DNA of 64,000 bases from the NCBI GenBank assembly GCA_038087875.1, contig CM075988.1:4898001-4962000 (forward strand). Reading direction: 5' to 3'. A program made the translations under genes and the position numbers. The stretch is from Malacoraja senta. Its lineage: Eukaryota. Below, piece after piece: positions 1,951 through 59,099 of the stretch (position 1 is the stretch's first letter; every line of letters starts with the position of its first letter). A model generated the notes under the pieces. That model saw only the letters and a list, made by a program, of their open reading frames with translations. It was not told the DNA's origin and did no database searches.

Positions 1951-2172
1951 TTAGTAAGATTAAATCGAAAACTTACCAGTTGGAAGTTTGATCTTTATTT
2001 TATGAGGAGTTACGATAAGGGATTACGTGAAGAGCCCGCCAGCCCGCATCCACGTCAATCTTCAAAGCAGCGGTGTGAAATCACAGAAAACAGTAGTTGA
2101 ACTGAATAGAGGAAGATTCGAGAAACTAGAACTACCAGCTGACCTTTATGAGAGAGGGTTGGGATCGGAGGG

Positions 2173-2285
2173 CACATAATCCCTCATCGTAACTCCTCAT
2201 AAAATAAAGATCAAACTTCAAACTGGTAAGTTCTCGTTTAATCTTACTATTTTACTTCGGAGTGACGTGAGTGACTACGTGAAGA
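2173..2285. other. DIRS internal complementary region (ICR), copy 1
   Basis: 2173-2249 is the near-exact reverse complement of 1952-2029; 2250-2285 is the reverse complement of 6672-6707; together they spell the circle junction. Confidence 0.92.
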
Positions 2286-2488
2286 TTTCAAAGCTCTGTG
2301 TTTTAATACCGTGAAAACGAGTCCACACAAGCACAACTGCATCAGTTGACCACAGATAAGGGAAACATTCATAATTCCATGGTAATAGCATTACCATGAC
2401 ATAGATTTAAAACATGCTGATGCTTTTCAATGAACAAATAATAATAATAGTAACCCCTTTCTTCCGTGAGGAAACTATAAAATAGAAA

Positions 2489-3441
2489 CTAAAATAGAGT
2501 TGGCAAATACCCCTGGTCTGGCAATGGGTTATTATAAAATGTTTGGAAAGTTCGTTCGTTAGACCATCCCGCAGCCGCTAGGATGTGGTCCAGCGGAACG
2601 TACATAACCCTTGCTGCTGATGTTGTAGCAGCCCTGGTGGAGTGAGATTTGAAAATATTAGTATCTACTCCTGCATGAGCCAAAACCCCGTTTAACCACC
2701 TGGAGATGGTCTGAACTGATACCTTCTTATGAGTTTTTTTGTAACTAACAAACATTGCTAGTATCAGAGCCTCTAAGGCTCTAGGTGACCTTGACGTATT
2801 GTTGTAAATGTGTGACCACATATAACGGAAGGTCCATGGGGTATGCCATGACACCTGATGCCCCTGGGCTGCTCTGCTTAACTAAATCATAACATAAGAT
2901 ATTATATTATTTGCAGATGTAACCATCCTATACAGTCGCAATTTATGTAGTGACTGGACCCGTTGCACTGAGACCAGCGCCATGAGGATAACTACCTTAT
3001 AAAAGCCGGGCCAACGATAAGGATGTAGCTGGAGCCCCCTGGTGAAGTAGTGTTAACACAATGTCAATATCCCATACTTCTGTGTACTTGGGCATGGGAG
3101 AACTAGTGTTAAAGATATCTTTTATAAACTGGATATCAGGGGGTGAGACCCGACAGAGTGGGTCCCGCTGGCTGCAGCAAATATGATGAGAAGGCACGTT
3201 GGGCACAGTTAATGGCACTATAACTTATTTTATTGTCAAAGACCCATTTGAAAATGAACACCAAGACGTCAGTTATCCGTGCCGTATTAAATGTAACATT
3301 AGCATTTAAACAAAACGCTTCCCATCTCCTGAAGAGGAAATGTACTGCTTTTTTGGTGCTATCCCTGCACTCTGCAGTGAGCACAAACATGGATCGGTCT
3401 GACAACCTGAGCCGCAGGAGCAGTCTTCTCAGAGTCTGCAA
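2489..3441 (-). pseudogene. DIRS tyrosine recombinase (fragmented)
   Basis: ORF 2489-2854 contains TISRWL, FKSHSTRAA and AAGWSNERTFQTFY; upstream fragments 2997-3441 resemble the N-terminal region (RRWEAFC, PKYTEVWDIDIVL). Confidence 0.88.
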
Positions 3442-3479
3442 GTCAATGAATTGATTTTACCATGCAGAGGCTGGTTTCC

Positions 3480-5330
3480 CGAGTCACAGGCTGAACCAGC
3501 AACGTTTTATGTTTAGAATAACCATATAAGGTTATATTATTATTCCCAACATAAGCAGGAACCATGGCTGCATAGGCCAGTCAGCCAGTACGAAAAAACC
3601 TGAAGCGGGATCTTGCTGAATTTATTACAAGACCTGACTGATGAGGCAAAATGGAGGAAAGGCATAAAAGAACATTCCTCCCCCGTGTAGTGAGAATGTA
3701 TCTCTCGCCAATGTTATGCCACATATTTTTGCAACCGGTGAATGAGCCTGGATGCAAACATATCGATATTCGGTGTTCCATCGACTCATAATGTCATAAA
3801 ATACTTTGTGATCCAACATCCATTCTGTGTTGTCATTGATTTTACGTGATGATACACCAGCGCCAAATGAGGTTAGGTAAATTATCACAGGATACTTTGA
3901 CTTGATTGCACCCATGTGACTAACATATGCCACCACCACAGTGTATCAACTTGGAATTGAGCATGCAGATTATGCATATATGCACAATAACCCTTTAACC
4001 CATAGAATGCACCTAGTGTCTATAGGTAGTTGATACCAATAACTGAAGAATTGGTAACTCATGCAAATCCCATCCGCCTCTGTAACTAGAGATGGCATTT
4101 GTAATTTTCCATCTTTGAGCACTAGCATCAGTTTGTAATATAACTGAAGATTTACTGACCAAAAACTACTGGAGCAATGCTGAATACTGTTCGTCCACCA
4201 TTGTGACTTTGGTAGCTTCAGCTGGTAATAGCATAGGTCTGTTAACAATGACCCACATGGCACTTGAGAGGTTACTACTTTGCACGTTGTAAGTTCTGAT
4301 AATGCAAAGGTCCATTTGCACAGTTGAAATACCACTACTATATTGCCAATTACACTTGATGAATAGAAGGCTGCTTCATAACAACAAGGTTGTTACAGCC
4401 TTCTATCAATTCCAATCTCTTGCCCCAGGGCAGAGTCACAGACAAATTAATAGTTAAAGGTAAATCCCAATAATCAATAACTCTAGTTGGTTTCAACTTA
4501 AATGTAACTGGATGGATGAGGAACCTCAATTTCTCAAATATAGTTTGCGGCTGAAACAGTTGATTTTAGCAAAATACAGCGTTTAGAATATCATCCAGAT
4601 AAGCCATAACATGTGTTTTTGAGCTCTGAGCAGTCCAAGCACCGGTTTAGTAATTTGGTAAATGACCTGGTAGCTGAATTTAGCCCATTTTGCAACGCAT
4701 TAACTGTTATCATTGCCCCATCCAGATAAATTTCAAATGTCTCCGGTGATCCCTGTGAATGGGACCTGAATAGTATGCATATTTGAGATTGATGCATGCT
4801 AAAGATCCTATGGAAATCAGTTGTTAGACAATAACGAAGTTCCATATTCTGAAAAGTCTATATTGCACATACGAGTTAAATCAAGGATGAACCAACATCC
4901 TCCATCTTTCACAATGAACAGGCCATGCCTGCCTCGAACAACAACTCTGGCCAGATTCCCGAGCCTGTCTTGAAAGGTAATCCTGGCCATAATACTGAGC
5001 CTGCCTCGAAAGACAACTCTGGCCATAATTCTGAGCCTGCCTCGAAAGACAACTCTGGCCTTATTTCTGAGCCTGTCTTGAAAGGCAATCCTGGCCATAA
5101 TACTGGGTCTGCCTCGAAAGACAACACTGGCCATAATTCTGAGCCTGCCTCGAAAGACAACTCTGGCCATATTCCCGAGCTTGTCTCGGAAGGCAATCCT
5201 GGCCATAATGCTGAGCCTGCCTCGAAAGACAACTCTGGCCCCAATTCCAAGCCATGCTTGGAACCCTTGTATATTGTGCATTATAAACTAAACACATGTT
5301 ATCATTTTAGTTTATAAACGGATCTAAATC
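3480..5330 (-). pseudogene. DIRS RT / RNase H / methyltransferase-like ORF (fragmented)
   Basis: IQG, KDGGCWFILDL, NGLNSATRSFTKLL, MAYLDDIL, TDAS..GW, VAYVSHMG, IDMFASRL, YAFPPF occur in the expected order across frameshifts. Confidence 0.85.
4928..5251. repeat. 36-bp minisatellite x9 inside DIRS RT N-terminus, (A-B-A)3 higher-order structure
   Basis: A unit cctgcctcgaaagacaactctggccataattctgag; units 2, 5 and 8 are the B variant (cYtgtctYgRaaggYaatcctgg...). Confidence 0.93.
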
Positions 5331-6708
5331 CCATGTTATCATTTTCATTTGTACAAAAAATAAGTGTAAATATTACTAACTTGTAAATGGTCCACATACC
5401 CCATGTTTCGGAAGAACCAGACGCACCTACCTCCATGGTTACTGGTGGTCTTATGGTAAGCCCAAAGGCCCCTGATGCGGGTTCTATTTCCGTCCTTGAT
5501 TGGAGAGTAGGACTGGTAGGGTGCGTGGATCCCATATTTTTCCTGAGACTGGCTTGGACCTTGGCCTGAAAGACCTCTGCCCAGCTTTCAAGCTGCCACC
5601 AGCTTCAGTGAACTGCTTACTGCCGATGAAGGCGTGGGGTGTGTCGTCGCTGAAACGACGAAGCTTTGCTCATCGTTGGTACCTTGATTAGTCCGACAGC
5701 TTTTGCTTCCTCATCCAGGTATTACCTGTAGAGAAGTTTCAGCGGCTGGTTTCATTTCCCCTCCAATGTCACCCCTGATAGCGCTGTTCACTGCCGGCAC
5801 TTGTGGCGTGAGGGGAACTCTGGCCCCTTCCGGGTTTGCTGCCAACGGCTGGAACCAACTCTTCCGGCAGCAACCCCTTCGTTTGCGAGTATTTCCTTGA
5901 AGCCATATGCATGTGCTCCAGGATGTTCCACGGACATACTATCGAATTGGAAGTCAGTTACACACTGACCACTCGCACTCCTCTCCACAGAGAGGGAGAT
6001 TCGTAAGCAGCCCTGAAAACAGGTGCTGCCGCAGGCCCCTGAGGATACCTGCGCTGATATGGCCCCATCCTACGGACCTATATCAGGAGCATCACATTTG
6101 TGGCATAAACGCCCGAGGGCGCTATCCATGCTCCATCTGGGTTAAACGTCCGAGGACGTACCCAGGTATGTCGGAGGGGAAGCCTCCTGGCCTGACTCGT
6201 CCGAGTCCATAGGCCTGACTGAATTATTCTTGGATTTACCCCCTTTCTGGGGAACCATAGCGGTCTGGGAGCCGCTGACCGCACTGTCATTGACTGGGGT
6301 GGCGAGACCGACTTACTCTTGGCTTTACCCGCTTTCTGGGGAACCACAGCGGTCTGGGAGCCGCTGACCGCATTGTCAGCGACTTGAGTAGTGAACCCGA
6401 CGGCCGACGGCCACCCGCGCTTCCGCTGTCCGGACCGGGATCTCCCCACGGTCCATAACCGGTTTCCCCGCGGCCCGTCCGGACATCTCCCTGAAATTAT
6501 CCAGCAGGAAAAACTCTGTAAGAAGAGATTCCTGCAAGAAAAAACAGAACCTGGAAATAAGTTTAAAACTTACCTGCAGATTTAAACTTACCGCTGGAAG
6601 GAGCGTCGCGCCTGCCAGTCAGTCGCTGCGCAATGCGTTAGACATAATGACGCGCATGCGGGCTGGCGGGCTCTTCACGTAGTCACTCACGTGACTCCGA
6701 AGTAAAAT

Positions 6709-8272
6709 TAAATCCGCTATTTTAGTGGGGAGACAATTCAACAAGATGGCATAATATTGAGGGGAACTTACTCCATTCCGATAGTCTAAATCACCTGATT
6801 GGCGTATATATAATCTCGAAAAGCAGTCTAGAAATTTGTCTGCTCCTTCACCCTTCTCTGGTCTTATTTCCAGGACTCGACTTAAATCGTGTGGTTTCTG
6901 AAACGTTTTGCAAGGGCCGTTAAAACGGCCTCTTCTCTTGCACTGTCATCCATTACTGCATTTGCCAATGTTTCATAAATTGGGTGTCCTAGGGCTACTA
7001 GAAATTTGGTATTCTCAGCTGGAGTAATTATCTGTTGTATGGTCTCCCACAAATCCCGTGAATCTGCATGGTATACACGCATTGTGGTCCGCAAGTACTC
7101 TATAAAGGCAGCAGGGGACTTCTTCCTATCAAGGATTCTGTTTAGTACTGCCATTATTTCATGCGGCTTCCATGGCATATGGGCGTCTGTAACGCGGGGA
7201 TTATTCATATTCACTGCACTGGCCGAATCTGCTATACTTATTCCTTCCCTTACTGGTAATTGCCTATGGGATACCTGTTCAATTCATAAGCTTTCGGTTA
7301 TGTCAAAGTCTATTTCGGTATCTAGGATCACTGTCTCACCCTCTGATAAATCTTCCGGTTCACTAGGGATTTCCCGATACTGCCCAAATAAAGCATTCAT
7401 TTCTACTCGTGTGATTTGCCTAGGTTGTGGCTCACAGAAATACTCTGGCGGTTGCACTATGTCTAACATACCTTTCTTTTCTATAAACACGGGAGCTAAC
7501 CTTTTCGTTCTACTCCGGGTGCCATAAGCCACTGGATGATCTATCAGTGATGGCGTGGATAAGATCGAAGGATCTGGTACCTCAGTATCTGCTGTTGGTA
7601 AAACCTGTTCAGATGTAGAATCGGCCGGAGTTGTTATAGATTCTGCAGACCTAAAATATTTATTACGGACACAAGTCATACACGGTGCTAATGAAGCCTG
7701 GGAAACGCAACATGGTGGGAGCTGTGAAGTTCCACTGGCGTTGACATTTGTCCACTCTTCTAAATACTCATCTTCTTCCCCCTTGAAGTCAGCACTAACC
7801 ATCGGATTCTTAATTTTTAATATTACAGGGACTACTTTTCTTCCAGGAGATCCACATTGCCCTAGTTCTGAGTGTTTCCCTTTATCTCCATTCCTGTTCC
7901 TACCACTACCTGGAGGTCGATCTACTTCACCTTCTTTTAGTTCTAATCCAAGTTTGGCGATCGCATATTCCCAACTCTCCATTTTCTTGACCTCCTTATT
8001 CGCCTTACGATCCTCGAAATATTTTCTCCATAACCCTATTAATTATTTTGCACCCTCGTTATTACTATGCTGCCAAATGATTCGTTCTATGTATTTTATC
8101 CCTCTTGCTGTTCTAATTCCCCCCTGGCGGCCATAGCTTATTCCCTAATTTCTTATTTAATACTCCTGATAAATTTCTTAATTTTTTCTGTCTTGTGAGG
8201 AAACTCATTACACATTAGTTGTAATGGGCTTTTCTCTTCTTCTGTTACATCTCTATCTACATTATTCCCCAT
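6709..8272 (-). pseudogene. gag: ERV gag, N-terminal part (matrix to capsid), with stops and frameshifts
   Basis: ATG at 8272 gives MGNNVD (Gly2) followed by LWPPGG; ORFs 7284-7982 and 6882-7214 (HMPWKPHEIMAVL); MHR-like RVLEIRPEKGEGADKFLDCF after a frameshift. Confidence 0.75.
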
Positions 8273-8682
8273 GCTTCCGAACACCTGAAACAGAATTTTT
8301 TAATCCTTCGTTTTATCCCTAAATTTACCAAGCTCGCTCCTAGACAATGGCTAATGGTTCAAAGCGATCGCAACCACGCAACTCACTACTCCTTCGCTCC
8401 ACCAGTCCTGTTCTCTCATTCAAATTCTTCTCCTATCTCCCATAAGTCAACATTCTTTCAAACTTATGATTTTCTCAATCAAAACATCTAAAAATGAGGG
8501 ACTTCCGGTGGCGCCACGGAGCAGTAAGGGCGCAGCATTGAGCTCCGCTCCCGCTAAAATCCTGAAAAAGACGTTTTGGAAGACGGGACCGATTTAAAAA
8601 TACTCACCGGAGCTGTTTGACGTCGTGTAACTGACGTCATCAGAAATCGCCACGAAATAACGGAGATTAACGACAGTTTTAA

Positions 8683-9526
8683 ATGAGAAAGAGGAATCTT
8701 CCTCAGAGACCTACAAGACCTGCAAGACCTGCTACAAGACTCCATCTGAAAGAACTTGGCAAAACACGGTAATGAGGAAGTGATTGAGCAAATGGCTAAT
8801 CTAAGGAAACGTGTTGAAGAAATTGAGGAGGATTTAAATACAGAAATCAAGCGGGTTGAAAAAGACTGTAACAAGAAGTTTGATTCCATACTCAATACTA
8901 CTAAAAAATACAACACGGTTATGGAAGAAATGGAAGCTGCGATGAGTGCTATGTCTAAGGGGATTAAAGAGACTGAGAAAGGAGCAAGAATGTGCTGGGG
9001 GGCAACTTGCCAAAATGACTGATAAATGCCTGGATTTGGAAGCAAGATCTAGAAGGCAGAATTTAAGAATAGTTGGAGTAAAAGAGAGAAGGGAAGCTGG
9101 AAAAAAACCCTGGGAGTTTGCTGCCAACTTACTTAAACAAGTGTTTAAGCTGCCTGAAAACCCGAGAATAGACGTGGCTCACCGGGTTCGACGAGCTCAA
9201 ACAAGGACAGGTGCCCCTCCAAGACAGATCATAGTGTAAATTCACGACATCTCTGCTCTGGAAGATATTATGAAACAGATCCCATTTGGATCGAATTTGA
9301 TGTATGAAGAGGATAATCTAAGATTCTTCCGTGACTATCCAACTGCTAAAAAAAAATGGACATGTTCACAAAGCCAAGACAGATTCTGAAAGGATTACCT
9401 AATGTAAGATATGGAATAATGTATCCTGCAAAAATGAGGATCACTTATAAGACTGATGAACGTGCCTTCATCGACCCAGAAGAGGCATTTAAATATGCAC
9501 AAGATAGTGTAAAGAGGACCGACTGA
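8683..9526 (+). pseudogene. L1 ORF1 (coiled coil + RRM-like), frameshifted
   Basis: Coiled-coil-like 8756-9022 frame, then DLEARSRRQNLRIVGVKE...IDVAHRV...PPRQIIV. Confidence 0.85.
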
Positions 9527-10638
9527 TTATCAGGAGTTGGTCCCTTATAATATCACAGAGGAGAAGCGGCGAAGATAAGACTTTTAAAATATAAGAATGC
9601 TCTCGTTAAGATGGCGGAATCTTCCACGAGGTGATGGCTAGACATCTTATCTCCCGGGAATGTGAATTCAAGGTTGAACTTTATGTTTCACTCTGAATGA
9701 AGGACTTAAAAACAAAGCAGAGCTGGGGAACATGGAAAACAAAGCGGAGCTTGGGAACATGGAAAAATAATAGAAATGGATTTGAATACAAAAACTTATG
9801 ATTTAAGAAACTCTTTTATAATCAAATACTAACATAAAATAATTAACTAACTCAACAACAGTAATCTACTATTGTGTAATACTGACTAATGTATAATATA
9901 ATAATGACTAACTCCCCTGAGGGGGAAAAGGGGGGCTTATTCCACGATGCTAATTAACTCCTATGTTTAAGGATAATGAGCTAAATATATCGATATATAT
10001 CAACAACATGCTAACAAACTAAAATGTATATAACAGATCTAGTCCAAGCTGTGCGCAAATGAGGGGGGAGGAGACTCAGATACTTGGAAGTTATCCAAGA
10101 GTCTGACTCTGGTTAACCCCTTGGAACCTGCTGTTGTCTAATATAATAGAGTAGGACTTAATTGGGGAGTGAAATGTAATAAATGTCGGTGTATAGGTAT
10201 ATACGGGTATTTAACTAACATATGTACTGGTATATTTTAGTATATATTTAACGTTAGATTAGTTGAAGATGCATTTAGATATTTAGACTCGATTTGTTCT
10301 TTTTCTTATATATATATCTCTCAGTTTTGAATCGGCCTTCTTCCTTTTTACAATATTTGGACAAGGGGACGGAGCTGAATGTAAAACAACATCTACGGAA
10401 GTTCATAAGAACTTATCTACCACCATTAGGTGTTTTTTTTTAAAGTATCCTCAGATACTATAATACCACTTTTTAAAAATTATTATCTCTTCATCAATTC
10501 ACACTTTTTGTCTTTTTCAAGGTTTACTTTGAAAGGGTGATGCCAACAGAATTTAACAGTTGTGGATGACCACCCAACAGCTATAGGTCTGAGGTACTTG
10601 GTTGCACCATATGACTTAAGGGTATCAAAATGATTCAT

Positions 10639-11430
10639 AATGCAAGATGATAAACAAAAGTAAATTGGAGGAATTACGTTTTGTAGCTGGAATATAAGGG
10701 GCGCTAATGAGCCAATTAAAAGGGGTAAGATTTTTGCCCAATGAAAATCACTCAATTCTGACATAATTTTTTTACAGGAAACACATTTGAAACATCAAAC
10801 ACAGATAAGATTAAAGGCAAATTGGATCAGGCAAACATACTACTCTTCATTTACTTCTAAATCTAGAGGCACGGCTATTATTATTCGTAAAGGTATACCA
10901 TTTAAATCAAAGAATATTATATCAGATAAAGAGGGGTGGTATCTTATAGTTACGGGAGAGATTCACTCTACCCCACTTACTATAATAAACATTTATGCTC
11001 CTAACTTTGATAACCCTCGATTCTTTAATACATTTCTGGATATAATTTCAGAGTTTAATTATCAAAACGTGATAATAGGGGGAGAGTTCTACTGTGTTCT
11101 AGATCCATATCTAGACAAATCTGCAAAACAAAAGAGGATTAACAAAGGAAAATACAATTACCAAAATTAAATCAGATAAAGGTGAATTATTAACAGTACC
11201 TAAAGACATTAACAAAAGATTTGCCCAATTTTATCAAAATTTAAATACATCTAAAACCTCAGCAGATAACACTAAAATCATAAATTTCTTAGAAAATTGT
11301 AATCTCCCAAAACTTAATGCGTTGGAACAAGAGGAATTAGGAGCTCAGATTACACTTAAAGAAATAGAAGAAACGTTAAATTCATGAAGAATGGTAAAAC
11401 GCCAGGACCAGATGGTTTTAGTAATGAGTT
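10639..11430 (+). pseudogene. L1 ORF2 APE endonuclease and linker (with internal deletion)
   Basis: SWNIRG, DIIFLQETH, SRGTAIII, INIYAPN, IIGGEF, then KTPGPDGF. Confidence 0.88.
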
Positions 11431-11564
11431 TTTTGTTTAAGAAGGAACTGCAGATGCTGGAAAATCGAAGGTACACAAAAGTGCTGGAGAAACTCAGCGG
11501 GTGCAGCAGCATCTATGGAGCGAAGGAAATAGGCAACGTTTCGGGCCGAAACCCTTCTTCAGAC
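11431..11564 (-). mobile_element. Penelope-like terminal repeat with hammerhead motif, inserted in L1 ORF2
   Basis: Minus strand CTGAAGAAGGGTTTCGGCCCGAAACGTT (11535-11562); flanked by tttagtaatga duplication at 11417-11427 and 11565-11575. Confidence 0.8.
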
Positions 11565-11579
11565 TTTAGTAATGAATTA

Positions 11580-12363
11580 ACAACCCCACTCTCACTATTG
11601 ACGGCACCACTGTCTCCCCATCTCCTCAGGCCCGCAACCTTGGCGTGATCTTTGACTCAACCCTCTCTCTTGAGCCATGTTGTCAAAACATCATTTTTTC
11701 ACCTCCGCAACATTGCCAAAATCAGACCCTCTCTCACACCCCCCGCTGCTGAAAGACTCATCCATGCCTTCATCTCCTCCCGACTGGACTACTGTAACTC
11801 TCTTCTCTTTGGCATTAACTCCAGCAACATCAACCGACTCCAACTGGTCCAGAATGCAGCCGCCCAACAAATCACCCACACCAAATCCTGGCACCACATC
11901 ACCCCAGTTCTCAAAGAACTTCACTGGCTTCCCATTTCCCACCGGATCATCTACAAAATCCTGGTCCTCACCTACAAAGCCCTCAACCACTTGGCCCCCC
12001 CTTATCTCACTGACCTCCTCCCCCCTACCAACCATCACAGTCCCTCAGATCCACATCAGCCGGTCTCCTCTCCATTCCGAAATCCAACCTCTGCACTTTT
12101 GGAGACAGAGCCTTCTCCAGGGCAGCTTCCAGGCTCTGGAACTCCCTCCCACAATTGATCCGAAATGCTGAGTCCCTCACCATCCTCCAGTCCCGCCTGA
12201 AGACCCATCTCTTCACCTCTGTATACCCTTAGTCCCATGTCCCCCTCCCCTTTGCATCTCTGTCTTACTGCTCTATTTTGTTTTGTTTTTGACTCTCCAT
12301 GTAAAGCAACTTTGAGTCCTTGAAAAGCGCTATGCAAATAAAATGTATTATTATTATTATTAT
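11580..12363 (+). mobile_element. L2-clade LINE 3' fragment
   Basis: FFHLRNIAKIRPSL, HAFISSRLDYCNSLL, LQLVQNAAA, HITPVLKELHWLP; ends with AATAAA and a (tat)n tail. Confidence 0.9.
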
Positions 12364-12445
12364 GAATGATTTTACGAGATAATTTCCCCATGCTTACAAA
12401 AAATATACACACATGCTTTTAAAGAAAATATACTACCAGATTCAC

Positions 12446-12856
12446 ACATCACAGTCGCTGCCTCCAAAAGGCTGGCAGCATCATCAAGGACCCACACCAT
12501 CCTGGCCACACACTCATCTCCCTACTACCTTCAGGTAGAAGGTACAGGAGCCTGAAGACTGCAACAACCAGGTTCAGGAATATCTACTTCCCCACAGCCA
12601 TCAGGCTATTAAACCTGGCTCGGACAAAACTCTGAACTTTATTAGCCAATTAACTGTTATTTGCACTTTATCAGTATAGTGATTAATGTGTGTATATGTT
12701 TATAGAATGGTATATGGACACACTGATCTGTTTTGTAGTCAATGCCTACTATGTTCTGTTGTGCTGAAGCAAAGCAAGAATTTCATTGTCCTATCAGGGA
12801 CACATGACAATAAACTCACTTGAACTTGAACTTGAACTTGAACTTGAACTTGAACT
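12446..12856 (+). mobile_element. Rex1/Babar LINE 3' fragment
   Basis: SIIKDPHHPGHTLISLLPSGRRYRSL...YFPTAIRLLN; AATAAA plus (cttgaa)n tail. Confidence 0.88.
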
Positions 12857-15190: not shown

Positions 15191-15192
15191 AT

Positions 15193-29099: not shown

Positions 29100-30318
29100 A
29101 CATAGATACATAGAACATAGGTGCAGGAGTAGGCCATTCGGCCCTTCGAGCCTGCACCGCCATTCAATACGATCATGGCTGATCATCCAACTCAGTATCC
29201 CGTACCTGCCTTCTCTCCATACCCCCTGATCCCTTTAGCCACAAGGGCCACATCTAACTCCCTCTTAAATATAGCCAATGAACTGGCCTCAACTACCCTC
29301 TGTGGCAGAGAGTTCCAGAGATTCACCACTCTCTGTGTGAAAAAGTTTTTCCTCATCTCGGTCTTAAAGGATTTTCCCCTTATCCTTAAGCTGTGACCCC
29401 TTGTCCTGGACTTCCCCAACATCGGGAACAATCTTCCTGCATCTAGCCTGTCCAACCCCATAAGAATTTTGTACATTTCTATAAGATCCCCTCTCAATCT
29501 CCTAAATTCTAGCGGGTATAAGCCAAGTCTATCCAGTCTTTCTTCATATGAAAGTCCTGACATCCCAGGAATCAGTCTGGTGAACCTTCTCTGCACTCCC
29601 TCTATGGCTATAATGTCCTTCCTCAGATTTGGAGACCAAAACTGTACGCAATACTCCAGGTGTGGTCTCACCAAGACCCTGTACAACTGCAGTAGAACCT
29701 CCCTGCTCCTATACTCAAATCCTCTTGCTATGAAGGCCAACATACCATTCGCTTTCTTCACTGCCTGCTACACCTGCATGCCTACTTTCAATGACTGGTG
29801 TACCATGACACCCAGGTCTCGCTGCATCTCCCCATTTCCTAATCGGCCACCATTTAGATAATAGTCTGCCTTCCCGTTTTTGCCACCAAAGTGGATAACC
29901 TCACATTTATCCACATTATACTGCATCTGCCAAACATTTGCCCACTCACCCTGCCTATCCAAGTCACCTTGCAGTCTCCTAGCATCCTCCTCACAGCTAA
30001 CACTGCCCCCCAGCTTAGTGTTATCCGCAAACTTGGAGATGTTGCTTTCAATTCCCTCGTCCAGATCATTAATATAAATTGTAAATAGCTGGGGTCCCAG
30101 CACTGAGCCTTGCGGTACCCCACTAGTCACTACCTGCCATTGTGAAAAGGACCCGTTTACTCCTACTCTTTGCTTCCTGTTTGCCAGCCAGTTCTCTATC
30201 CACATCAATACTGAACCCCCAATCCCGTGTGATTTAAGTTTGTATCCTAATCTCTTATGTGGTACCTTGTCGAAAGCCTTCTGAAAGTCCAGATACAACA
30301 CATCCACTGGTTCTCCCC
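29100..30318 (-). mobile_element. CR1 LINE, 5'-truncated, near-intact RT frame, inserted in the Gypsy LTR
   Basis: ORFs 29768-30307 ([31 protein letters not shown]) and 29192-29761 are in the same frame, separated by a single stop. Confidence 0.95.
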
Positions 30319-32276
30319 TTCAAGGTACAACAGAAGTCTTTATTACATTACTCAATGCTGGCAGCAAGACAACTCAAAATGGCTGCGCACACACACACAC
30401 ACACATAGACAGGAGAAAACTATATACAAAACATCTCCCTTTGTCCTGTGCAGCACCACCTGCTGCATGGGAGGAGCAACGGGTCCCCGCAACGGGTCTC
30501 CGAACCCACACAGTCCACCAAACATTACATTCCCCCTTTCCAGTTTGAACTTCTCTATTTTGGACCTCGCTTCACTCTTTTCCAGCCTTTTTTTGCGTTT
30601 CACAACTCTTGCTAAAGGCTCACAATCAACAGAGTTTTCCTCGGTGTTTTCTTTTGAAGAGATATCAGTATTTGCTTTATCAGTATGCTGTTCATTCTCC
30701 ACTTGACTGTAGTTTTTCTCGGCGATCGTCAACGTTTTGGATGTGAACGCGATTGGTTCTTCCTTGCCGTTCGGCGCCATTTGTGAGATTACAGCTCCAA
30801 GACCAGACGGCAATGCATCGGCGGCCAGCGAGATCGGCTTCGATGGGTCATAGTGGACCAAACGCGTCTTCTGGGCGAGCATCTCCTTCAACCTGTTGAA
30901 TGCATGGTCACACTCTTTGGATCAGTGCCATTCGACGTCCTGTTTTCGCAGGTTGTTCACGCACTTGCTGACCATGTTGCAATCCGTGGTCGATGACAAT
31001 GCCATAGTTGATCCGTCGTAGATCAAGGCGTTCATGTCAAGCTTGAAAGCATGGATCCAGTCGATGTGGCACAGGGATGTGCCTTCTTTACCAACGACGA
31101 TCAGCGGCAACATCTGTGTCAGACCATTACAGGAAACGGCGACAGTGCATTTGCCTTTCGTGAGAATGGGCTGTCGTCCGTATCTGAAAATCGGATGTTG
31201 GCCGGTTTCAGTTTGGGCGATCCGATCCTCTCCCAGATGTCCTGACCCACTAGCGACACAGCCACACCAGTGTCCACCTGGAACTATAGATCAACGTTCG
31301 AGACCCGCAGCGAAATTCTCGTATTGTCGGTGATCGTAGACACACCGAGCACTTCAATAGGAATAGTCCGCGATTTGGTCGACTGTGTTTTGCGATTTCT
31401 TGCCCTTTCTCAGCTTTCCTACGGATTGGCACACTGCCTGGAGATGACCTTTTTGGTAACAGGCATAACATAACGGACTTGATATACGGGCACTCACGGT
31501 GATGATGAGCAGTCGAGCCGCACCGGTAGCAGGGTTTCGATCCTCCCCCCACAGGGGGACGGCACTTCTGAAACTGTCCCACCTTCTCCGGATTTGGTCT
31601 GGGTCGATCAACTGGTTTCTGGCGTTGCGGACGAGTCTGACGAACTGTATACACCTCCTGAGGGAGCTTCGACGCTGTTTCGCCGGCCATTTTGTGCAGT
31701 TCTTTACTCAACAGCTTGGCCATCTTAGCACACTGCAACATATTCTTCAGTGAGGCATCTGATTCCTTGCAAATGCGTGCCTGCAACCCATGACTAGTCT
31801 ATCCCGCAACGCATTGTCTTGCCACTTTTCGCAGCACTGAGTTTTTAAATCACATACCTTTGCCTTGGTGCGAAGTTCGGCAAGAAATTCGGTAATCGAT
31901 TGCCCTTCCTGTTGCACCATCCTGTAGAAATCAGGGCTTAGCTGCGAGGAAATTTAGACTTTCTTCGAAATGCAGCTACAAAGCCGTTGTGATTTCAGCA
32001 TATGAGGCTTCAGTTACTTCTTCTGTAAGTTAATTTTGAAGCAGTGCAAAAGTTTCTGGAGACACTGATGAACACAAGAGAGCCTTCTTCCTCTGGTCAG
32101 TCGTAATTGCCATACTTTCAAAATAAAATTCAGCTCGCATTAAATACGACGACCACCTTTCTCGCTCGGGATCGAAACGATCGAATTGCCGAGACATGTT
32201 AGTTTGAGTACAATACAGAACCCCCCCCCCAAAAAAAGTTTTAAAAAAATAAAAAACAGGCTCTTATCTAGGTCTT

Positions 32277-47124: not shown

Positions 47125-47289
47125 ATGTAACTCCATTTGGAATATTAAGAGGAAATTCAAAGTTGGCGATTTCACTGGAATCTATTCAACTCTGCATAGA
47201 ATTACAAGTTCGATTTATACTGTGGCTTTAATACAGTAAAATGTTGCTAAGTTCTTTGATCCAAATATCCTAACAATCTGTCCTAGACC

Positions 47290-49234: not shown

Positions 49235-50246
49235 TTTTTTTTAATTTTTAAAAAAAAATTATTAGAGGTACATTACATTACAACCACATACATTAGTACT
49301 CGTCACTTATGTCTTCTTACAATTAATGTACTCCATTTGTTTTTTACACTAGAAGAGGAAAAGATTGAAAGAAAGAAGAAAGTGAAGGAAAAAGTGAGAG
49401 TGTAGAAAATGTGACAACAAAAAAGGACGAAGACCCTATAAGAACAAAATTAAAAACAAAAGATAAAGAGTTAAGAAATAGACCCTAGAAAAGAAAGAGA
49501 AAGAGAAAGACGAAAAAGAGAGAAACAAATATTTTTATGAGCATTATGTAAATGGGACATACCAACTCTTCAACTATCATCCCCCATTACCTGACCTCAA
49601 TTTTTTTTTTTAAGGTACCTTTGCACCCTATATTTGTAATAATTCTATAAATGCAGACCACGTCAGGTGGAAGTGATCTGGTTTACCTGCTAGGAGGAGT
49701 CTTATCTCTTCTAGGTGTAATGTTTCAAACATATTTGAAATCCACATGTTTATAGTTGGTATTGGAGCCTTCTTCCAAAATTTTAGAATTAGCTTTTTTT
49801 CCAGTTATTAACCCATAGTCTACTAGTTTCTTTTGAAACACATTTAGTTCTGGACCATCTTCCGTTATTCCGAAGATAATCCATTCTGCTTTGGGTATCA
49901 GTCTTATTTCAAATAATTTTGTAAAGATTTCGAAAATGTAATTCCAAAATTTTTGAATTTTTGTACAGAAAACGAATGAGTGCGCTATAGTAGCTTCTTG
50001 GGATTGACATTTATCACAAATAGATGATACATTTGGGGAAATTTTATGAATTTTAGTTTTGGAATAATATAATCTATGTAAAATTTTAAATTGTATTAAA
50101 GTGTGTCTTACATTAATCGAACATTTATGCACGTTTAATAAGTGTTCATTCCAACTTTCCTTTGAAATTTTAATAGCTAACTCTTGTTCCCAGTCTCTTC
50201 TGATACCCTCCGTAGATGGTATTTGTACATTTAAGATAATATTAAA
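49235..50246 (-). mobile_element. L1 3' fragment inserted in a SINE (48953-50284), 17-bp TSD
   Basis: ORF 49725-50132 has IQFKILHRLY and the CDKC..ATIAHSFVFC knuckle; poly-A end; TSD tgtaaggcggcaactct at 49218-49234 and 50247-50263. Confidence 0.92.
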
Positions 50247-51395
50247 TGTAAGGCGGCAACTCTACCGCTGCGCCATCGTGCCGCAGATTGCAAACAGTTT
50301 GGGACCAAGGACAATATCTAAGCATTTGTTTCTCGTCTCAGTCATTCACTGGGAGCTGCCATTTCCCATTGCCTCCAAGGGCGGCAAGCTAATGCAGTGA
50401 CAGAAGTTTCCCCGTGGAAAGATTCCACTCCTTGCATCTTTCGGTCGGCACACAGCAGGCAGCTAGAGCAAACACCAGCATTATTTATCTGCTGCACACG
50501 CTTCATCTGGTGCCAGATGAAGAACAATGAATGAATGAATGAATTAATTAATTCATACTTTTTTGTCACATGTGACAAGTCACAGTGAAATTCTTTGTTT
50601 TGCATATCCAAGGTATGGATATACCAAAAGGGCACCAACAAACTTACAAAGTATCCCATGCCAGGCCTCCCCCCTCCCCCCTCCCCCTCACAGCGGTCCT
50701 CCATATGACGGCTCCTCCTTTATTCCCCACCTCCGCATGTAGTCCCCCCACATTGGGTCCACACAAGGAGATTTGGAGTCTGAGGAGTATGAAGAGGAGT
50801 CTGGAGACCAGTAAATGCAAGAGGAGTAGGAGGGATATCCCAGCACACCGGCTTTCCTCCGGGAGCTCCGGTTTCCACCCACATCCCAAAGCCGCGCAAG
50901 TTTGTAGGTTAATTGGCCTCTGTGTGTAGATTATGGATGAGAAAGTGGGATAACATAGAACTCGTGTGACTGGGTGATTGATAGTCTTTGTGGACTCCGT
51001 GGGCCGAAGGGCCTGTTTCCATGCAGTCACACTATCTGTTGCCCGATTCCTCTAGACTGTGCGTGTTTGAGTGCCAATGCACTGTCCCGCTGAGTTACTG
51101 CTTGCAGGATGGGTTCAGTGCAGTGTGGTCCTTTCAGGAACTGCACAGAAGCTTGTCTCCAGAATAATCTCTGATGCAACAATGATATAACGCACCAACA
51201 TTGGATGAGAGGCAATCTGTGCTTGGAGCCAGAAGACACAGGTGAGGTCGTGAATGAATACCTTTCATCGGTATTCACAAAGGAGACGGACCTTTAGATG
51301 GAGATTTTAGTGAAAGTGTTGATGAAATTCTGGTACAGGTCTCCATGGATCAAAGGGTACTTTTTTATTTATGGAGAACTGTTCTCAAAGAAAAC

Positions 51396-51703
51396 ACGGC
51401 ATGGTGGCGCAGCGATAGAGTTGCTGCCTTACAGCGCTGGAGAACCAGGATCGATCCGGACTACGGGTGCTGTCTGTACGGAGTTTGTGAGTTCTCCCTG
51501 TGACTGCATGCGTTTTCTCCACTATTTTCGGTTTCCTCCCACTCTCCAAAGAGGTACAGGATTGTAGGTTAATTGGGTTGGTATAAATGTACATTGTCCT
51601 TAGTATGTGTGGGATAGCGTTAATGTGCATGGATCACTGGTCGGCGCAGACTCGGTGGGCCAAAAGGCCTTTTTCCACGCTGTATCTCTAAACTAAACTA
51701 AAC
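51396..51703 (+). mobile_element. tRNA-derived SINE, full length
   Basis: tggtggcgcagcg A-box, gatcgatcc B-box variant, (aaact)n tail. Confidence 0.85.
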
Positions 51704-51729
51704 TTAATAGACCTTGATACTTTGACAGG

Positions 51730-53152
51730 CATAGAAACATAAAAACAAAGAAACATAGAAAAATAGGTGCAGGAGTAGGCCATTCGGCCCTTCGAGCCTG
51801 CACCGCCATTCAATATGATCATGACTGATCATCCAACTCAGTATCCCGTACCTTCCTTCTCTCCATACCCCCTGATCCCTTTAGCCACAAGGGCCACATC
51901 TAACTCCCTCTTAAATATAGCCAATGAACTGGCCTCAACTACCTTCTGTGGCAGAGAATTCCAGAGATTCACCACTCTCTGTGTGAAAAATGTTTTTCTC
52001 ATCTCAGTCTTAAAATAATAATAATAATAATAATATCTTTTATTGTCATTGCACGTCAGTGCAACGAGATTTAGTATGCAGCTCCACCGATGTACAAGAA
52101 AAGTAAGATAAATAAATAAGCAAGCAAGCTGAGTGACGTGACCATCCGAGGGAGACTGTCCAGGGGGGTGGGTGGGGGGGCACGCAGCAGGGCCGGTTCA
52201 GAGCCGCTATAGCTCTTGGAATAAAGCTGTTTCTGAGTCTGGAGGTTCGGGCGTAGAAGGCCTTGTAACGTCTGCCGGAGGGAAGTAGTTCAAACAGTCC
52301 GTTACAAGGGTGTGATGAGTCCTTATGGATGCTGACGGCCTTCCTGAGGCACCGTGTGTGGTAGATGCCCTCCAAGGCTGGTAGCTCTGTCCCAATGATC
52401 CTCTGCGCTCTGTGGACGACGCGCTGAAGAGCTCTCCTCTCCGCCTCCGTGCAGCTGAGATACCACACAGAGATGCCATACGTTAATATGCTCTCTGTGG
52501 TGCAGCGGTAGAACGTTGTCAGCAGCTGTTGGGGCAGACCAGTCTTTTTTAATGTCCTCAGGAAGAACAGTCATTGCTGTGCCTTCTTGACCAGCGCAGC
52601 GGTGTTGGTGGACCATGTGAGGTCCTCTGAAATGTGAGTGCCCAGAAACTTAAAGCTGGACACTCTCTCCACACTTTCCCCATAAATGGAGATTGGGGCG
52701 TATTCTCCATTATGGGACCTCCTGAAGTCAATAATTCAGCTCCTTGGTCTTGGAGGTGTTTATTGACAAGTTGTTATGAGCGCACCAGTCCGCCAGGTTC
52801 TGCACCTCCGCTCTGTATTTTGTTTCATCACCGTTGGTGATCAGCCCAATCACTGTTGTGTCGTCTGCAAACTTCACGATGGTGTTGGTGTCGAATGCAG
52901 ATTTCGAATAAAAGATTTCCCCTTTATCCTTAAACTGTGACCCCTTGTTCTGGGCTTCCCCAACATCGGGAACAATCTTCCTGCATCTAGCCTGTCCAAC
53001 CCCTTAAGAATTTTGTAAGTTTCTATAAGATCCCCCCTCAATCTTCTAAATTCTAGCGAGTAGAAGCCGAGTCTATCCAGTCTTTCTTCATATGAAAGTC
53101 CTGACATCCCATGAATCAGTCTGGTGAACCTTCTCTGTACTCCCTCTATGGC
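51730..53152 (-). mobile_element. CR1 3' region split by a Rex1 insertion
   Basis: 3' UTR 51730-52014 is nearly identical to ~29100-29367; coding resumes at 52910-53152. Confidence 0.88.
52015..52895 (-). mobile_element. Rex1/Babar LINE, RT C-terminal half
   Basis: KFADDTTVIGLI, FKFLGTHI, LLPSGRRYK, RLRNSFIPRAI; (tat)n tail. Confidence 0.92.
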
Positions 53153-53476
53153 ATCCACGTAGGTGGATAAAATCCCAGGGGTGGAAGGGATTTCTCCCAG
53201 CCTGCTGCAGGAGGCAAGTGAGAGATACCTGATGCTCTGGCTGAGATTTCGAACGCACCTGAAGGTCAGTAAAGGTGGATTCTCTTTGCAAGCAATGCAG
53301 TAGGGCAAAGTGTGATAACAATCAGCCTAACATCAGTGCTGCAGAAGATACTGGAAGAATAAGTTCTGAGGGAATGGATTAATGATTATCTGGAAAGGCA
53401 AGGACTAATCTGAGACAGCCAACATGGCTGACCTATTTGAATGAATTATTTGAAGAGATAACAAAGTGTATCGACG

Positions 53477-54075
53477 ATAGACACAAAATGCTGGAGTAAC
53501 TCAGCGGGACAGGCAGCATCGCTGGATAGAAGAAATGGGTGATGTTTCGGGTCGAGACCCTTCTTCAGATTGAGAGTCAGGGGAGAGGGAGACACAGAGG
53601 TATGGAAGGGTAAGTTGTGAAATTGAGACATCAAAGGGGACGAAGGTCAAGGAGAATGTAGAATAAATTGTTGTCATCTAGGGGAAGGTGACAATGAAGC
53701 ATACAAAGATAAAATATAACTAGGGAGACAGTCAGACTAGTCGGAGAACTAGGATGGGGAGGGATGGGGGAGAGGGAAAGTAGCGATTATTTGAAGTTAG
53801 TGGTCGATATTCATACCACTGGGGTGAAAGTTGCCCTAGCAAAATATGAGATGTTGTTCCTCCAATTTGCGTTGGGCCTCACTCTGACAATGGAGGAGAT
53901 CCATGGACACAAAGGTTAGCATGGGAATGGGAGGGGGAGTTAAAGTGTTTGGCAACTAGGAGATCACGTAGGTTTAGGCGGACTAAGTGGAGGTGTTCAG
54001 CGAAACGATTGCCGAGCCTGCGCTTGGTCTCGCCGAGATATATAGGAGTCAACACCTGGAACAGCAGATACTGTA
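53477..54075 (-). mobile_element. Penelope-like 3' fragment
   Basis: GIY-YIG remnant (YLGETKRRLGNRFAEHL, HFNSPSH, KLEEQHLIFC) plus terminal repeat. Confidence 0.85.
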
Positions 54076-54396
54076 GATGTAATGTTACAATACAAAGTGT
54101 ATCAATGAGGAGAGCAAGTAGATATGATATTCATGGACTCTAATAAAGCCTGTTTGACAAGGTCAAAGGTTTGATTAGTTTGACTGGTTCAAGAGGCTGG
54201 GTTGCCATGGGATCGAGGCATATTGGTGAATGGGATGCAAAATTGTCTTTGGATAAATAGGACAGACAATGACAGTAGAGGGTTGTATTTTGTAATACAG
54301 AAAATTGTGAGGTGATGCGCTCAGGAAGTATTAATGAGGCTCGTGCATATAACATGAACAATGGGGTACTACAGAGTATGGAGAAACTGATCCAGT

Positions 54397-57300
54397 AATA
54401 GTAAGATTAAATGAGAACTTACCAGTTTGAAGTTTGATCTTTATTTTATGAGGAGTTACGATGAGCGATTACGTGAAGAAGCCCGCCAGTGCGCATGCGC
54501 GTCAATCTTCAAAGCAGCGGTGTGAAATCGCAGATAACAGTAGTTGAAGTGACATAGTAAGATTAGAGAAAACTAGAACTACCAGATGACCTTTATGATA
54601 CAAGGGTTGGGAGCGGAGGGCACGTAATCGCTCATCGTAACTCCTCATAAAATAAAGATCAAACTTCAAACTGGTAAGTTCTAGTTTAATCTTACTATTT
54701 TACTTCGGAGTCACGTGAGTGATTCCGTGAAGATTTCAAAGCTCTGTGATTTCATGCCGTGGAAAAGTCCACACAAACACAACTGCATCAGTTGACCACA
54801 GATAAGGGAAACATTGATAATGCATACAGACATGACATGGGTTTAAAACATGCTGATGCTATTTAATGAACAAATAATAATAATAGTAACCCCTCTCATC
54901 CGGGAGGAAACTATAATATAGAACCTAAAATAGAGTTGGCAAATACCACCGGTCTGGCTATGGGTTATTATAAAATGTTTGGGAAGCTCGTACGTTAGAT
55001 CATCCTGCAGTCGCTAGGATGTGGTCCAGCGGACCATACATAACACTTGCTGCTGATGTTGTAGCAGCCCTGGTGGAGTGAGATTAGAAAATATTAGTAT
55101 CTACTCCTGCATAAGCCAAAACCCCGTTTTAACCACCTGGAGATGGTCAAAACTGATACCTTCTTATGAGGTTTTTCGTAAATAACAAACATTGCTAGTA
55201 TTAGAGCCTCTAAGGCTCTAGGTGACCTTGACGTATTGTCGTAAATGTGTGACCACACATAACCGAAGGTCCATGGGATATGCCATGAGAACTAGTTTGA
55301 GACCTGACGCACCTGGGCTGCTCTACTTAAGTAAATCATAAACGTAAAATATTATATTATTTGCAGGTGTAACTGCAATTTATGTAATGACTGGACCCGT
55401 TGCGCTGAGACCAGCGCCCTGAGGATAACTACCTTATGAGAGCCGGGCCAAAGATAAGGATGTAGCTGGAGCCCCCTGGTGAAGTAGTATTGACACAATG
55501 TCAATATCCCATACTTCCGTGTGTTTGGGCCTGGGAGAACTTGTGTTAAAGATATTCTTTATAAACTGGATATCAGGGAGTGAGACCCGACAGAGTGGGT
55601 CCCGCTCACTGCAGCAAATATGATGAGAAGGCACGTTGGGCACAGTTAATGGCTTTATAACTTAATGTATTGTCAAGGACGCATTGTAAATGAACTCAAA
55701 GACGTCAGTTATCCAGCCGTATTATATGTAACATAGTATTTAAACAAAACGCTTCCCATCTCCTGAAGAGGAAATGTACTGATTTTTTGGTGCTATCCCT
55801 GCACTCTGCAGTGAGCACATACATGGATCGGTCTGACAATCCAAGCCGCAGGAGCAGTCTTCTCGGAGTCTGCATGTCAATGAATTGATTTTCTCATGCA
55901 GGGACTGGTTTCCCGAGTTGCAGGCTGAACCAGCAAAGTTTTATGTTGAGAGTAACCATATAAGGTTCTATTATATTCCCAACGTAAGCGGGAACCATGG
56001 CTGCATAGGCCAGTCAGACAGTACAAAAACCCCTGAAGCGGGATCTTGCTGAATTTATTGCAAGACCCGACTGATGAGGCAAAATGGAGAAAGAACACAA
56101 AAGAACATTCCTCCCCGTGTAACGAGAATATATCTCTCGCCGCTGTGAACCACATATTTTTGCAACTGGTGAATGAGCCTGGATACAAACATATTGATTT
56201 TCGGTGTTCCATCGAGCCATAATGTCATAAAATACTTTGTGATCCAACATCCATTCTGTGTTGTCATTGATTTTATGTGATGATACACCAGCGCCAAATG
56301 AGGTTAGGTAAATTTGACAGGATACTTTGACTTGATTGCACCCATGTGACCAACATATACCACCACCACAGTGTATCAACTTGGAATTGAGCATGCAAAT
56401 TATGCATATTCACACAATAACCCTTTAACCCATAGAATGCACATAGTGTCTATAGGTAGTTGATACCAATAACTGGAGAATTGGTAACTGATGCAAATCC
56501 CATCTGCCTCCGTGACTAGAGATGGCATTCGTAATTTTCCATCTTTGAGCACTAGCATCAGTTTGTAACTGAAGATTTAGTGACCAAAACCTACTGGAGC
56601 AATGCTGAATAATGTCCGTCCACCATTGTGACTTTGCTAGCTTCAGCTGGTAATAGCATAGGTCTGTTAACAATGACCTACATGGCACCTGAGAGGTTAC
56701 TACTTTGCAGGTTGTAAGTTCTGATAATGCAAAGACCCAATTTGCACAGCTGAAACACAGCTGCTATATTGCCAATTACACTTGATGAATAGAAGGCTGC
56801 TTCATAACAATAAGGTTGTTACAGGCTTCTAATGTTTCCAATCTCTTGCCCCAGGGCATAGTCACAGACAAATTAACAATTAAAGGTAAATCCCAATAAT
56901 CACTAACGCTAGTTGGTATCAACTTAAATTTAACTGGATGGATAAGGAACCTCAATTTCTCAATTATAGTTTACAGTTGAAACAGTTGATTTTAGCAAAA
57001 TACAGCGTTTAGAATATCATCCAGGTAAGCCAGAACAAGTGTTTTTGAGCTTTTGGCAGTCCAAGCACCGATTTAGTAATTTGGTAAATAACCTGGGAGC
57101 TGAAGTTAGCCCATTTTGCAACGCTTTAACTGTTATCATTGTCCCATCCAGATCAATTTCAAATGTCTCCGGTGATCCCTGAGAATGGAAATCAGTTGTT
57201 TAACAGTAACGAAATTCCATATTCTGAAAAGTCTGTGTTGCACATGCGAGTTAAATCGAAGATGAACCGACCTCCTCCATCGTTCACAATGAACAGGCCA

Positions 57301-59099
57301 CACCTGCCATAATTCCGTGCCTGCCTTGAACGACAACACTGACCAGATTCCCGAGCCTGTCTCGAAAGGTAATTCTGGCCATAATACTGAGCCTGCCTTG
57401 AAAGACAACTCCTGCCATAATTCTGAGCGTGCCTCGAAAGACAACTCTGGCCTTATTTCCAAGCTTGTCTCGGAAGGCAATCCTGGCCGTAATACTGAGC
57501 CTGCCTCGAAAGAAAACTCTGGCCCCAATTCCAAGCCATGCTTGGAACCCTTGTATACTGTGCAAAATAAACCAATCACATGTTATCATTTTAGTTTATA
57601 AGCGGATCTAAATCTCATGTTATCATTGTCATTTGTACAAAACACAAGTGTAAATATTACCAACTTGTAAATGGTCCACATACCCCATGTTTCGGAAGAA
57701 CCAGACCAACTTACCTCCATGGTAAGCCCAAAGGCCCCTGATGTGGGTTCTATTCCCGTCCTTGATTGGAGAGTAGGACTGGTAGGGTGTGTGGATTCCA
57801 TATTTCCTGGGACCGGCTTGGACCTTGACCTGAAAGACCTCTGCCCAGCTTTCAAGCTATCACCAGCTTCAGTGAACTGCTTACTGCCGATGAGGCGGGG
57901 GGTGTGTCGTCGCCGAAACGATGAAGCTTTGTTCGTCGTTGGTACCTTGATTAGTCCGACAGCTTTTGCTTCCTCATCCAGGTATACCTGTTGGATAAGT
58001 CTGACCTGAAGAGAAGATTCGGCGGCTGGTTTCATTTCTCCAATGTCACCCCTGATAGCACTGATCACTGCCGGCACTTGTAGCATGAGGGGAACTCTGG
58101 CCCCTTCCGGGTTTTCTGCCCACGGCTGGAACCAACTCTTCCGGCAGTAACCCCTCGTTTGCGACTATTTCCTTGGAGCCATATGCATGTGCTCCAGTAT
58201 GTTCCACGGACATACTTTCGAATTTGAATTCAGTTACACACTGACCACTTGTACTCCCCTCCACAGAGAGGGAGATTCATAGGCAGCCCTGAAAACAGGT
58301 GCTGCCGCTGGCCCCTGAGGATACCTGCCCTGATACGGCCCCTCCTACGGACATATATCAGGATTTTTGCTCTGACAGGAACTGATCCCGAATGCTCCCC
58401 TCCTCAGAGAGGAAGACATTGTGCAGCTCTGAAACAGGTGCCACTGCCGTGGGCCCCCGAGGAGACCCGCGTTGATAACTCCCTCCTTTGGAGTATATCA
58501 TTGTGGATTATTATTATCAGGTGCTCCATGTGGGTTAAGACATCTGCAGACGCTACCCATTGAAGGAGGGGAACCCTCCTGGCCTGACTCGTCCGAGTCC
58601 ATAGGCCTGACCGACTTACTCCTGGTTTTACCCCCTTTCTGGGGCACCATAGCGGTCTGGGAGCAGCTGACTGCCCTGTCAGCGACTCGGGTGGCGAGAC
58701 CGAATTACTACTGGTTTTACCCCCTTTCTGGGGAACCACAGCGGTCTGGGAACCGCTGACCCCATTGTCAGCGACTTAGGTAGCGAACCCGACGGCCGAC
58801 GGCTACCCGCGCTTCCGCGGACCGGACCGGGATTCCCCATGGTCTATAACCGGTTTCCCCGCGGCCCGTCCGGACTTCGCCCTGAAATCATCCAGCAGGA
58901 AGAACTCTGTAAGAAGAGTTTCCTGCAAGATATAACAGAACCTGGAAATAAGTTTAAAACTTACCTGCAGGTTTAAACTTACCGCTGGAAGGAGCAGCGC
59001 GCCTGCCAGTCAGGTGTTGCGCCATGCGCTAGACATAATGACGGGCATGCGCACTGGCGGGCTTCTTCACGGAATCACTCACGTGACTCCGAAGTAAAA
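54397..59099 (-). mobile_element. DIRS1-type retrotransposon, copy 2 (full length, defective)
   Basis: Collinear with copy 1; ICR 54621-54733; ITRs ~54472-54504 and ~59039-59070; LAYLDDI, HSTR and 36-bp array present. Confidence 0.93.
57320..57535. repeat. 36-bp minisatellite x6, (A-B-A)2
   Basis: Same unit as 4928-5251, shorter by one 108-bp trimer. Confidence 0.9.

Follow-up and report, generated by a model that had tools for sequence, protein, structure and literature searches.

Two DIRS1-like copies at the locus

The window analysed here, a 64-kb stretch of the Malacoraja senta genome (GenBank assembly GCA_038087875.1, contig CM075988.1, positions 4,898,001 to 4,962,000, forward strand), contains exactly two copies of a DIRS1-like retroelement, both on the minus strand. 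Copy 1 (1950–6708) begins ATT and ends AAT, and copy 2 (54397–59100) begins GTT and ends ATT; a preliminary description of this stretch had located both, and their termini extend slightly further than it claimed, to the trinucleotide. The copies align over 4,547 columns with 408 substitutions (9.0%) and 32 gaps. Their ends are of the NTT type, with no target-site duplication past the trinucleotide, and 5′ ends with diverse flanks start at ATT in the contigs of all four sequencing runs used here (85–281 contigs each). Shared flanking DNA had been proposed as a check for segmental duplication; no homology adjoins the termini in the 1 kb compared on each side of the copies. Judged from sequence, the copies carry the features of the DIRS1-like superfamily: a tyrosine recombinase, the pol order, imperfect inverted terminal repeats (ITRs), an internal complementary region (ICR) and NTT-type ends. 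Membership of Ngaro, PAT or VIPER was ruled out, because the terminal matches of both copies are inverted and not split direct repeats. A search against Rfam gave no matches.

The ITRs of both copies have divergent and conserved parts, and the ICR, near the 3′ end, is complementary to both termini, its two portions (rICR and lICR) overlapping at a trinucleotide. Within each copy the ICR pairs with the right terminus over 78 columns and with the left terminus over 36, and the inner ITR pairs left with right over 24. In copy 1, the right terminus (extension plus divergent ITR, 1950–2029) is complementary to rICR, and the right conserved ITR lies at 2026–2057. The copy 1 ICR spans 2173–2285 (rICR 2173–2251, lICR 2249–2285, junction trinucleotide 2249–2251), and the left terminus (6648–6708) follows lICR over 6672–6708 and the right ITR over 6648–6671. 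In copy 2, the right terminus and right conserved ITR together occupy 54397–54504 (terminus to 54475, ITR 54472–54504), the ICR spans 54621–54733 (rICR 54621–54699, lICR 54697–54733), and the left terminus (59039–59100) is identical to the lICR complement at 36 of 36 positions (59064–59099). All of these features are on the minus strand.

Mirrored differences between the copies

We called an alignment column mirrored when each copy agrees with itself and the two copies differ. Across four-row alignments of 138 columns (78 right end/rICR, 36 left end/lICR and 24 inner ITR), six columns were mirrored. One joins the right end to rICR (2020 and 2181 in copy 1; 54466 and 54630 in copy 2) and two join the left end to lICR (6680 and 6682, with 2275 and 2277 in the copy 1 ICR and 54723 and 54725 in that of copy 2). 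The other three lie in the inner ITR and include a 1-nt indel (near 2033, with substitutions at 2043–2044, in copy 1; 54480, 54490 and 54491 in copy 2). The preliminary description had reported that each terminal difference is mirrored in the copy's own partner sequence, and every string that it quoted lies where it had been placed: 6678–6684 and 2273–2279 are reverse complements, as are 59070–59076 and 54721–54727; the 3′-end G/C site is at the right-end positions above; and the ITR strings occur at both ends (2029 and 6658 in copy 1, 54475 and 59049 in copy 2), indel included. It had left out 11 private, unmirrored changes, 8 in copy 1 and 3 in copy 2. At column 1965/54412, both 3′ ends have T and both ICRs have C.

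When the observed differences were permuted, six or more coinciding columns arose with P = 7.5 × 10−5; merging neighbouring changes into four events gave P(≥4) = 0.014. The private mismatches correspond to about 2.9% post-insertion decay in copy 1 and about 1.1% in copy 2, so that about 5.0% separates the parent lineages. If one mutation is copied to two places, 6.9 mirrored columns are expected; two independent hits predict 0.37–1.1. Because the six columns seen match the former and exceed the latter, the mirrored changes are single mutations that were copied, and not the compensatory double hits first described. Parallel CpG decay was also rejected as their source, as none of the six is in a CpG deamination context. 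Taken together, these data support the inheritance of ends and ICR, and of left and right ITRs, as coupled units: at the time of insertion each lineage had ends identical to its ICR and identical inner ITRs, despite the differences between lineages. The inner-ITR sites, half of the total, are not part of the ICR; they record the other step of the replication model, in which the left ITR is copied from the right.

Coding relics and shared decay

The pol region (reverse transcriptase (RT), RNase H and methyltransferase) lies upstream of the recombinase and is present as a relic. The tyrosine recombinase relic of copy 1 (2484–3450, minus strand) carries an HSTR motif and is broken, with most breaks common to copy 2; the pol relic (3482–4909, minus strand) has an RT with YLDD and, by homology, RNase H and methyltransferase regions, and bears 17 frameshifts and 8 stops relative to the pol of a metagenome relative, L001. 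In copy 2, a recombinase relic was identified by homology to relatives (54920–55884, minus strand), and the pol relic (55986–57192, minus strand) has 12 frameshifts and 6 stops relative to L001 pol. The recombinase relic matches Pfam PF00589 directly at a level below the cut-off and is 66% identical to P0001, which passes it. The pol relic has no direct Pfam match, and a homologue search with one frameshifted frame as query found none; it matches L001 pol in tblastn (E = 7.6 × 10−39) and also L004 pol, at 41–43% identity. Both of these carry RVT_1, and L004 has weak RT_RNaseH and Dam matches as well. Pfam and tblastn gave no match to a gag-like open reading frame (ORF1) in 5320–6100, and no recombinase relatives were found in viral and prokaryote collections. 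A 36-bp tandem array lies upstream of the RT core (4903–5346), with fewer units in copy 2 (about 57290–57630), and 89-bp repeats occur at 6217–6401 and 58609–58792.

Breaks were called by frameshift-aware alignment to relatives. In pol, 11 of the 12 frameshifts and 5 of the 6 stops of copy 2 fall at the same places in copy 1; the recombinase adds five shared frameshifts and one shared stop, with a sixth pair near a copy-to-copy gap left uncounted, for a total of about 16 frameshifts and 6 stops. Most of these survive a second query or a stiffer penalty. There is no homopolymer enrichment (2 of 16 breaks near a run of at least four, against a 12% background), and five of seven control alignments among relatives contain no event. 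Differences between the copies are distributed over codon positions 1, 2 and 3 as 24/22/16; there is no third-codon excess and therefore no protein-level selection. As read from these breaks, the common ancestor of both copies was already coding-dead, pol and recombinase having been broken before the lineages split, a state that the preliminary description had left out; the transposing ancestor would thus not have had the intact ORFs of an autonomous DIRS1-like element.

Scaled by the copy-to-copy frameshift rate, the shared frameshifts amount roughly to 11.5% neutral decay before the split. An ancestor with unrenewed ends would have passed about 32 ICR/end mismatches to both descendants, and we observed 0–1 (P = 6 × 10−13, or 2 × 10−6 with the expectation halved). 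This scarcity speaks more strongly for renewal of the ends, and against duplication at the DNA level, than the six mirrored sites do; the coding decay common to both copies makes the mirrored-site observation more useful. Given that the flanks are unrelated and that shared mismatches are so few, the two copies are supported as independent insertions, as the preliminary description had argued against segmental duplication.

Relatives and variant shares

Among 17 metagenome loci, four entered the covariation count (L001, L009, L011 and L016). We left out L008 and L017 (more than 99.6% identical to L009 and L016), L005 and L002 (apparently rearranged or collapsed near the ICR), and L004, L010 and L015 (without a close partner); the rest had no inverted match. 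With edge columns removed, the right ends of L011 and L016 gave five mirrored columns and no shared mismatches, L009 and L016 gave four mirrored columns, and L009 and L011 gave none, with 25 other differences. The window copies compared with L001 gave 16 mirrored columns and no shared mismatches. Right ends among the metagenome relatives track the ICR of the same element. In L005 (1010–1125) and L002 (1480–1600), the ICR and right terminus look fused or collapsed, which could reflect misassembly at the fold-back or a genuine product of template switching. The predicted circle-junction pattern had no matches in the metagenome contigs.

We also aligned the contigs of 4 out of 23 runs, from four organisms, on 451 bases. 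At the five mirrored substitution sites the letters of both copies are common in all four runs; for example, 54466 C>G has a share of 0.54–0.72 and its mirror at 54630 a share of 0.64–0.81. At each mirrored substitution site, some contigs reach at least 30 bases into sequence unique to that site. The unmirrored base of copy 2 at 54683 has a share below 2%. A further pair, 54428/54668, stands at 0.01/0.03 in one organism and at 0.17–0.26 in three. If the majority contig alleles are ancestral, copy 2 would hold the derived substitutions and copy 1 the derived indel. Only on that condition does the earlier claim stand that each lineage re-copied its ends after the two diverged. The low flank of copy 2 (54350–54381) is covered by run X1 (organism A) alone among the four aligned.

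A 77-bp fold-back forms between the right end and the ICR (z = −17). At the left terminus there is a small hairpin, at 6672–6708 and 59064–59100 (−7.8 and −7.3 kcal/mol; 0.3–0.7% of shuffles as good), with both mirrored left-end sites within its arm. The hairpin was also seen in L001 and L003 and is not general among relatives: a conserved junction hairpin was rejected as a general feature, because left-end or lICR folds beat shuffles (fraction as good 0.033 or less on at least one strand) in only 4 of 10 elements, and in none of L005, L009, L011, L016 or L004. A GCATGCG palindrome core, which we take to resemble an NRF1 site, occurs in the inner ITR at 6653, 54492 and 59045 (three of its four matches in the window) and in distant relatives at L001:4348, L002:1587, L009:8340, L011:1002 and L016:1018. 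It might mark a promoter.

Probable renewal of ends in a decayed family

We reasoned that the copies are most probably two independent insertions of one high-copy, near-full-length, coding-dead, non-autonomous DIRS1-like family that moved in trans and had its ends rebuilt in each cycle. In the Cappello model (PMC7192593), the ends are missing from the RNA; the right repeat serves to restore the left one and the ICR then serves to restore both extremities, and the resulting circle integrates through the recombinase. Following this model and work in Dictyostelium, the RNA of the window family, without both ends, would be reverse-transcribed by proteins of an autonomous DIRS relative, and the left inner ITR would be copied from the right ITR. 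At a shared box (CGTG/CGTGAAGA), synthesis would switch to the ICR, read across its junction and rebuild both ends, and the circle would integrate by tyrosine recombination at an ATT trinucleotide; the pattern of end trinucleotides fits exchange after the first base of ATT. Every descendant should then carry a mutation of the ICR or right ITR twice, and mutations that arise later should lack a match. Given that the ORFs are dead, the RT and recombinase must have come from another family.

The mirrored alleles also locate the switches. On the left, 6680 agrees with the ICR and the indel at 6671 with the right ITR, which places the switch within the 8-nt box at 6672–6679. On the right, 2020 follows the ICR and complementarity stops at 2029, placing the switch within 2021–2029. 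ITR coupling extends at least to the two substitutions at 2043–2044.

Several observations weigh against this explanation. Covariation is symmetric and does not identify the direction of copying, so that, of the proposed ICR-templated regeneration, the coupling stands and the direction does not follow; by analogy, the direction from ICR to ends would rest on the Dictyostelium work (PMC7192593). Only the two full copies are phased; contig shares are unphased, and 27–41% of aligned contigs fit two places, so that matching frequencies are partly built in. For the ICR variant 54635 T>A (share 0.36 in X1), the 40 rows listed (85 further) contain no mirror, although a loose-end consensus in X1 does show the mirrored base. 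Among relatives, the left end of L011 differs from its own ICR at about 7 of 40 positions, and the right end of L009 is heavily decayed. Column 1965/54412 depends on the alignment, being either a shared end-versus-ICR mismatch or two private events. Two controls gave breaks (three frameshifts in L006, one stop in L002), and the 11.5% divergence is only a rough scaling. Finally, neither the window nor the DNA contigs showed an autonomous helper family, a transcript end or a circle.

The symmetry of the covariation would equally suit copying that is reversed or two-way, with the ends correcting the ICR, or mismatch repair of a folded cDNA homogenizing both, for which the 77-bp fold-back is a possible substrate. 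We consider this unlikely, because the match of both ends to the ICR is exact across the stretch that the RNA lacks in the published model, and because ICR deletion blocks completion downstream of first-strand synthesis (PMC7192593). It is distinctly improbable that the ends are carried in the RNA and that selection for pairing fixes compensatory double mutations without copying. Between copies, the ICR and termini differ somewhat less (5.2–5.6%) than the interior (7.4–11%), the ICR is essential (PMC7192593), and the two changes at the left end fall within a hairpin that is about equally stable in both copies, all of which fit such selection. Against it, the mirrored changes occur near the neutral one-hit rate, include an indel and show the same change at both places, and the DIRS-1 transcript lacks its ends (PMC7192593).

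Gene conversion within each chromosomal copy after insertion would be favoured by right-end inverted repeats only about 150 bp apart, but we hold it to be very improbable, as 11 unmirrored changes persist, the mirrored alleles are common to many copies in four organisms and the left end, 4.4 kb from its ICR, is matched equally well. We give least credence of all to DNA-level duplication of one dead copy, which would yield shared coding breaks, or to assembly errors that mimic them. Homology stops at both termini, and of the about 32 shared ICR/end mismatches expected of a duplicate 0–1 are seen; the shared stops are substitutions, the breaks are not enriched at homopolymers, and comparison with the run contigs shows no common indel over the first 420 of the 451 aligned bases (the non-coding part only).

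Movement in trans with rebuilt ends would matter because direct support for the DIRS replication model is scarce: the requirement for the ICR is established, but templating and the circle lack demonstration in PMC7192593 and the related work considered. The mirrored alleles show that the ends are reset jointly with the ICR; they also place the switch point and provide a way to date DIRS copies. If a dead family renews its ends, every step must be able to work in trans, including that of the recombinase, which PMC7192593 left open. We put forward more tentatively, as slightly less probable than its contrary, a natural instance of complete trans-mobilization in an ITR/ICR-type DIRS. On this reading, a near-full-length, coding-dead family kept amplifying in several related host species with RT and recombinase borrowed from elsewhere; its alleles map the ITR-to-ICR switch to an 8-nt box, and ICR-versus-end mismatch serves as a per-copy insertion clock. 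If this is true, phased copies would provide a genome-scale, base-level test of the 1985 model. The result supports an accepted model and does not overturn one; it is well beyond chance and expected under the known model. What is new is the shared coding decay of both copies together with renewed ends.

Other features in the window

Copy 1 lies within a gag-like relic of another retroelement (1–1912 and 6709–8400, minus strand), which has two zinc knuckles below copy 1; the stretch above copy 1 has a weak Retrotrans_gag lead in Atlas (score 0.92, rank 3) and no Pfam match. A separate RT and RNase H relic of the long terminal repeat (LTR) retrotransposon type lies at 29768–30921 on the minus strand (RVT_1, E = 4.8 × 10−20; RT_RNaseH_2, E = 6.9 × 10−22). 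Matches to zf-RVT and ALKBH8_N at 49725–50261 and 52046–52570 are presumably 3′ fragments of long interspersed elements. Many short interspersed elements, which we assume to resemble HE1, are scattered across the window; copy 2 may interrupt one of them, with a match at its high flank only.

Comparison with known elements

The ICR, the Cappello model and family-level complementarity have been published, vertebrates included (PMC3266345 and the available parts of PMC9210276, PMC8969392 and PMC5633606). PMC3266345 describes DIRS1-like elements as having ATT ends and one box common to all four repeats, with a conserved ITR that is short and a divergent one 'mostly constrained by' the ICRs. Like AcaDIRS1/2 and LgDIRS1/3 (PMC3266345, Table 3), the window copies have ATT termini, an AAT junction, a divergent ITR following the ICRs, a conserved ITR of about 30 bp, a right extension, a comparable ICR (37 + 79 against 39–45 + 86–88), a box common to both ITRs and both ICRs, and end trinucleotides with one target-derived mismatch. 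They differ from this type in a four-way box that is exact over 4–6 nt against the at least 10 stated in PMC3266345, in the 36-bp array upstream of the RT core and in ORFs that would have been dead before the lineages split.

Dictyostelium DIRS-1 likewise has an ICR complementary to both ends, and its two-step restoration predicts both kinds of mirrored site. ICR deletion blocks its retrotransposition, and its RT can act in trans, the question being left unanswered for the other proteins (PMC7192593). The window ITRs are about 60 bp, not about 300 bp, and the evidence here is natural variation, not a marked element. Inverse PCR for the junction gave no product in PMC7192593; the ICR itself carries the predicted circle-junction sequence, making junction PCR weak. 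We found no allele-level test of ICR/end covariation and no ICR-based dating in the literature searched, which did not extend to Cappello 1985, the Goodwin and Poulter papers or supplements such as Additional file 3 of PMC3266345, any of which may hold such comparisons.

Chlamydomonas TOC1 is a non-autonomous DIRS-order element, according to the available part of bioRxiv 10.1101/2022.06.16.496473, and a zebrafish element is named DIRS-N1 in the available part of PMC5400779, compared here by name only. The window family appears to resemble TOC1 in being mobile without functional enzymes of its own, but retains near-full-length decayed ORFs. TOC1 has split direct repeats rather than ITRs and an ICR. 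In LTR retrotransposons, the repeats are reset at insertion, so LTR–LTR mismatch dates a copy; compared with LTR–LTR identity, the window family couples three pairs, which are inverted, and one of these pairs is internal.

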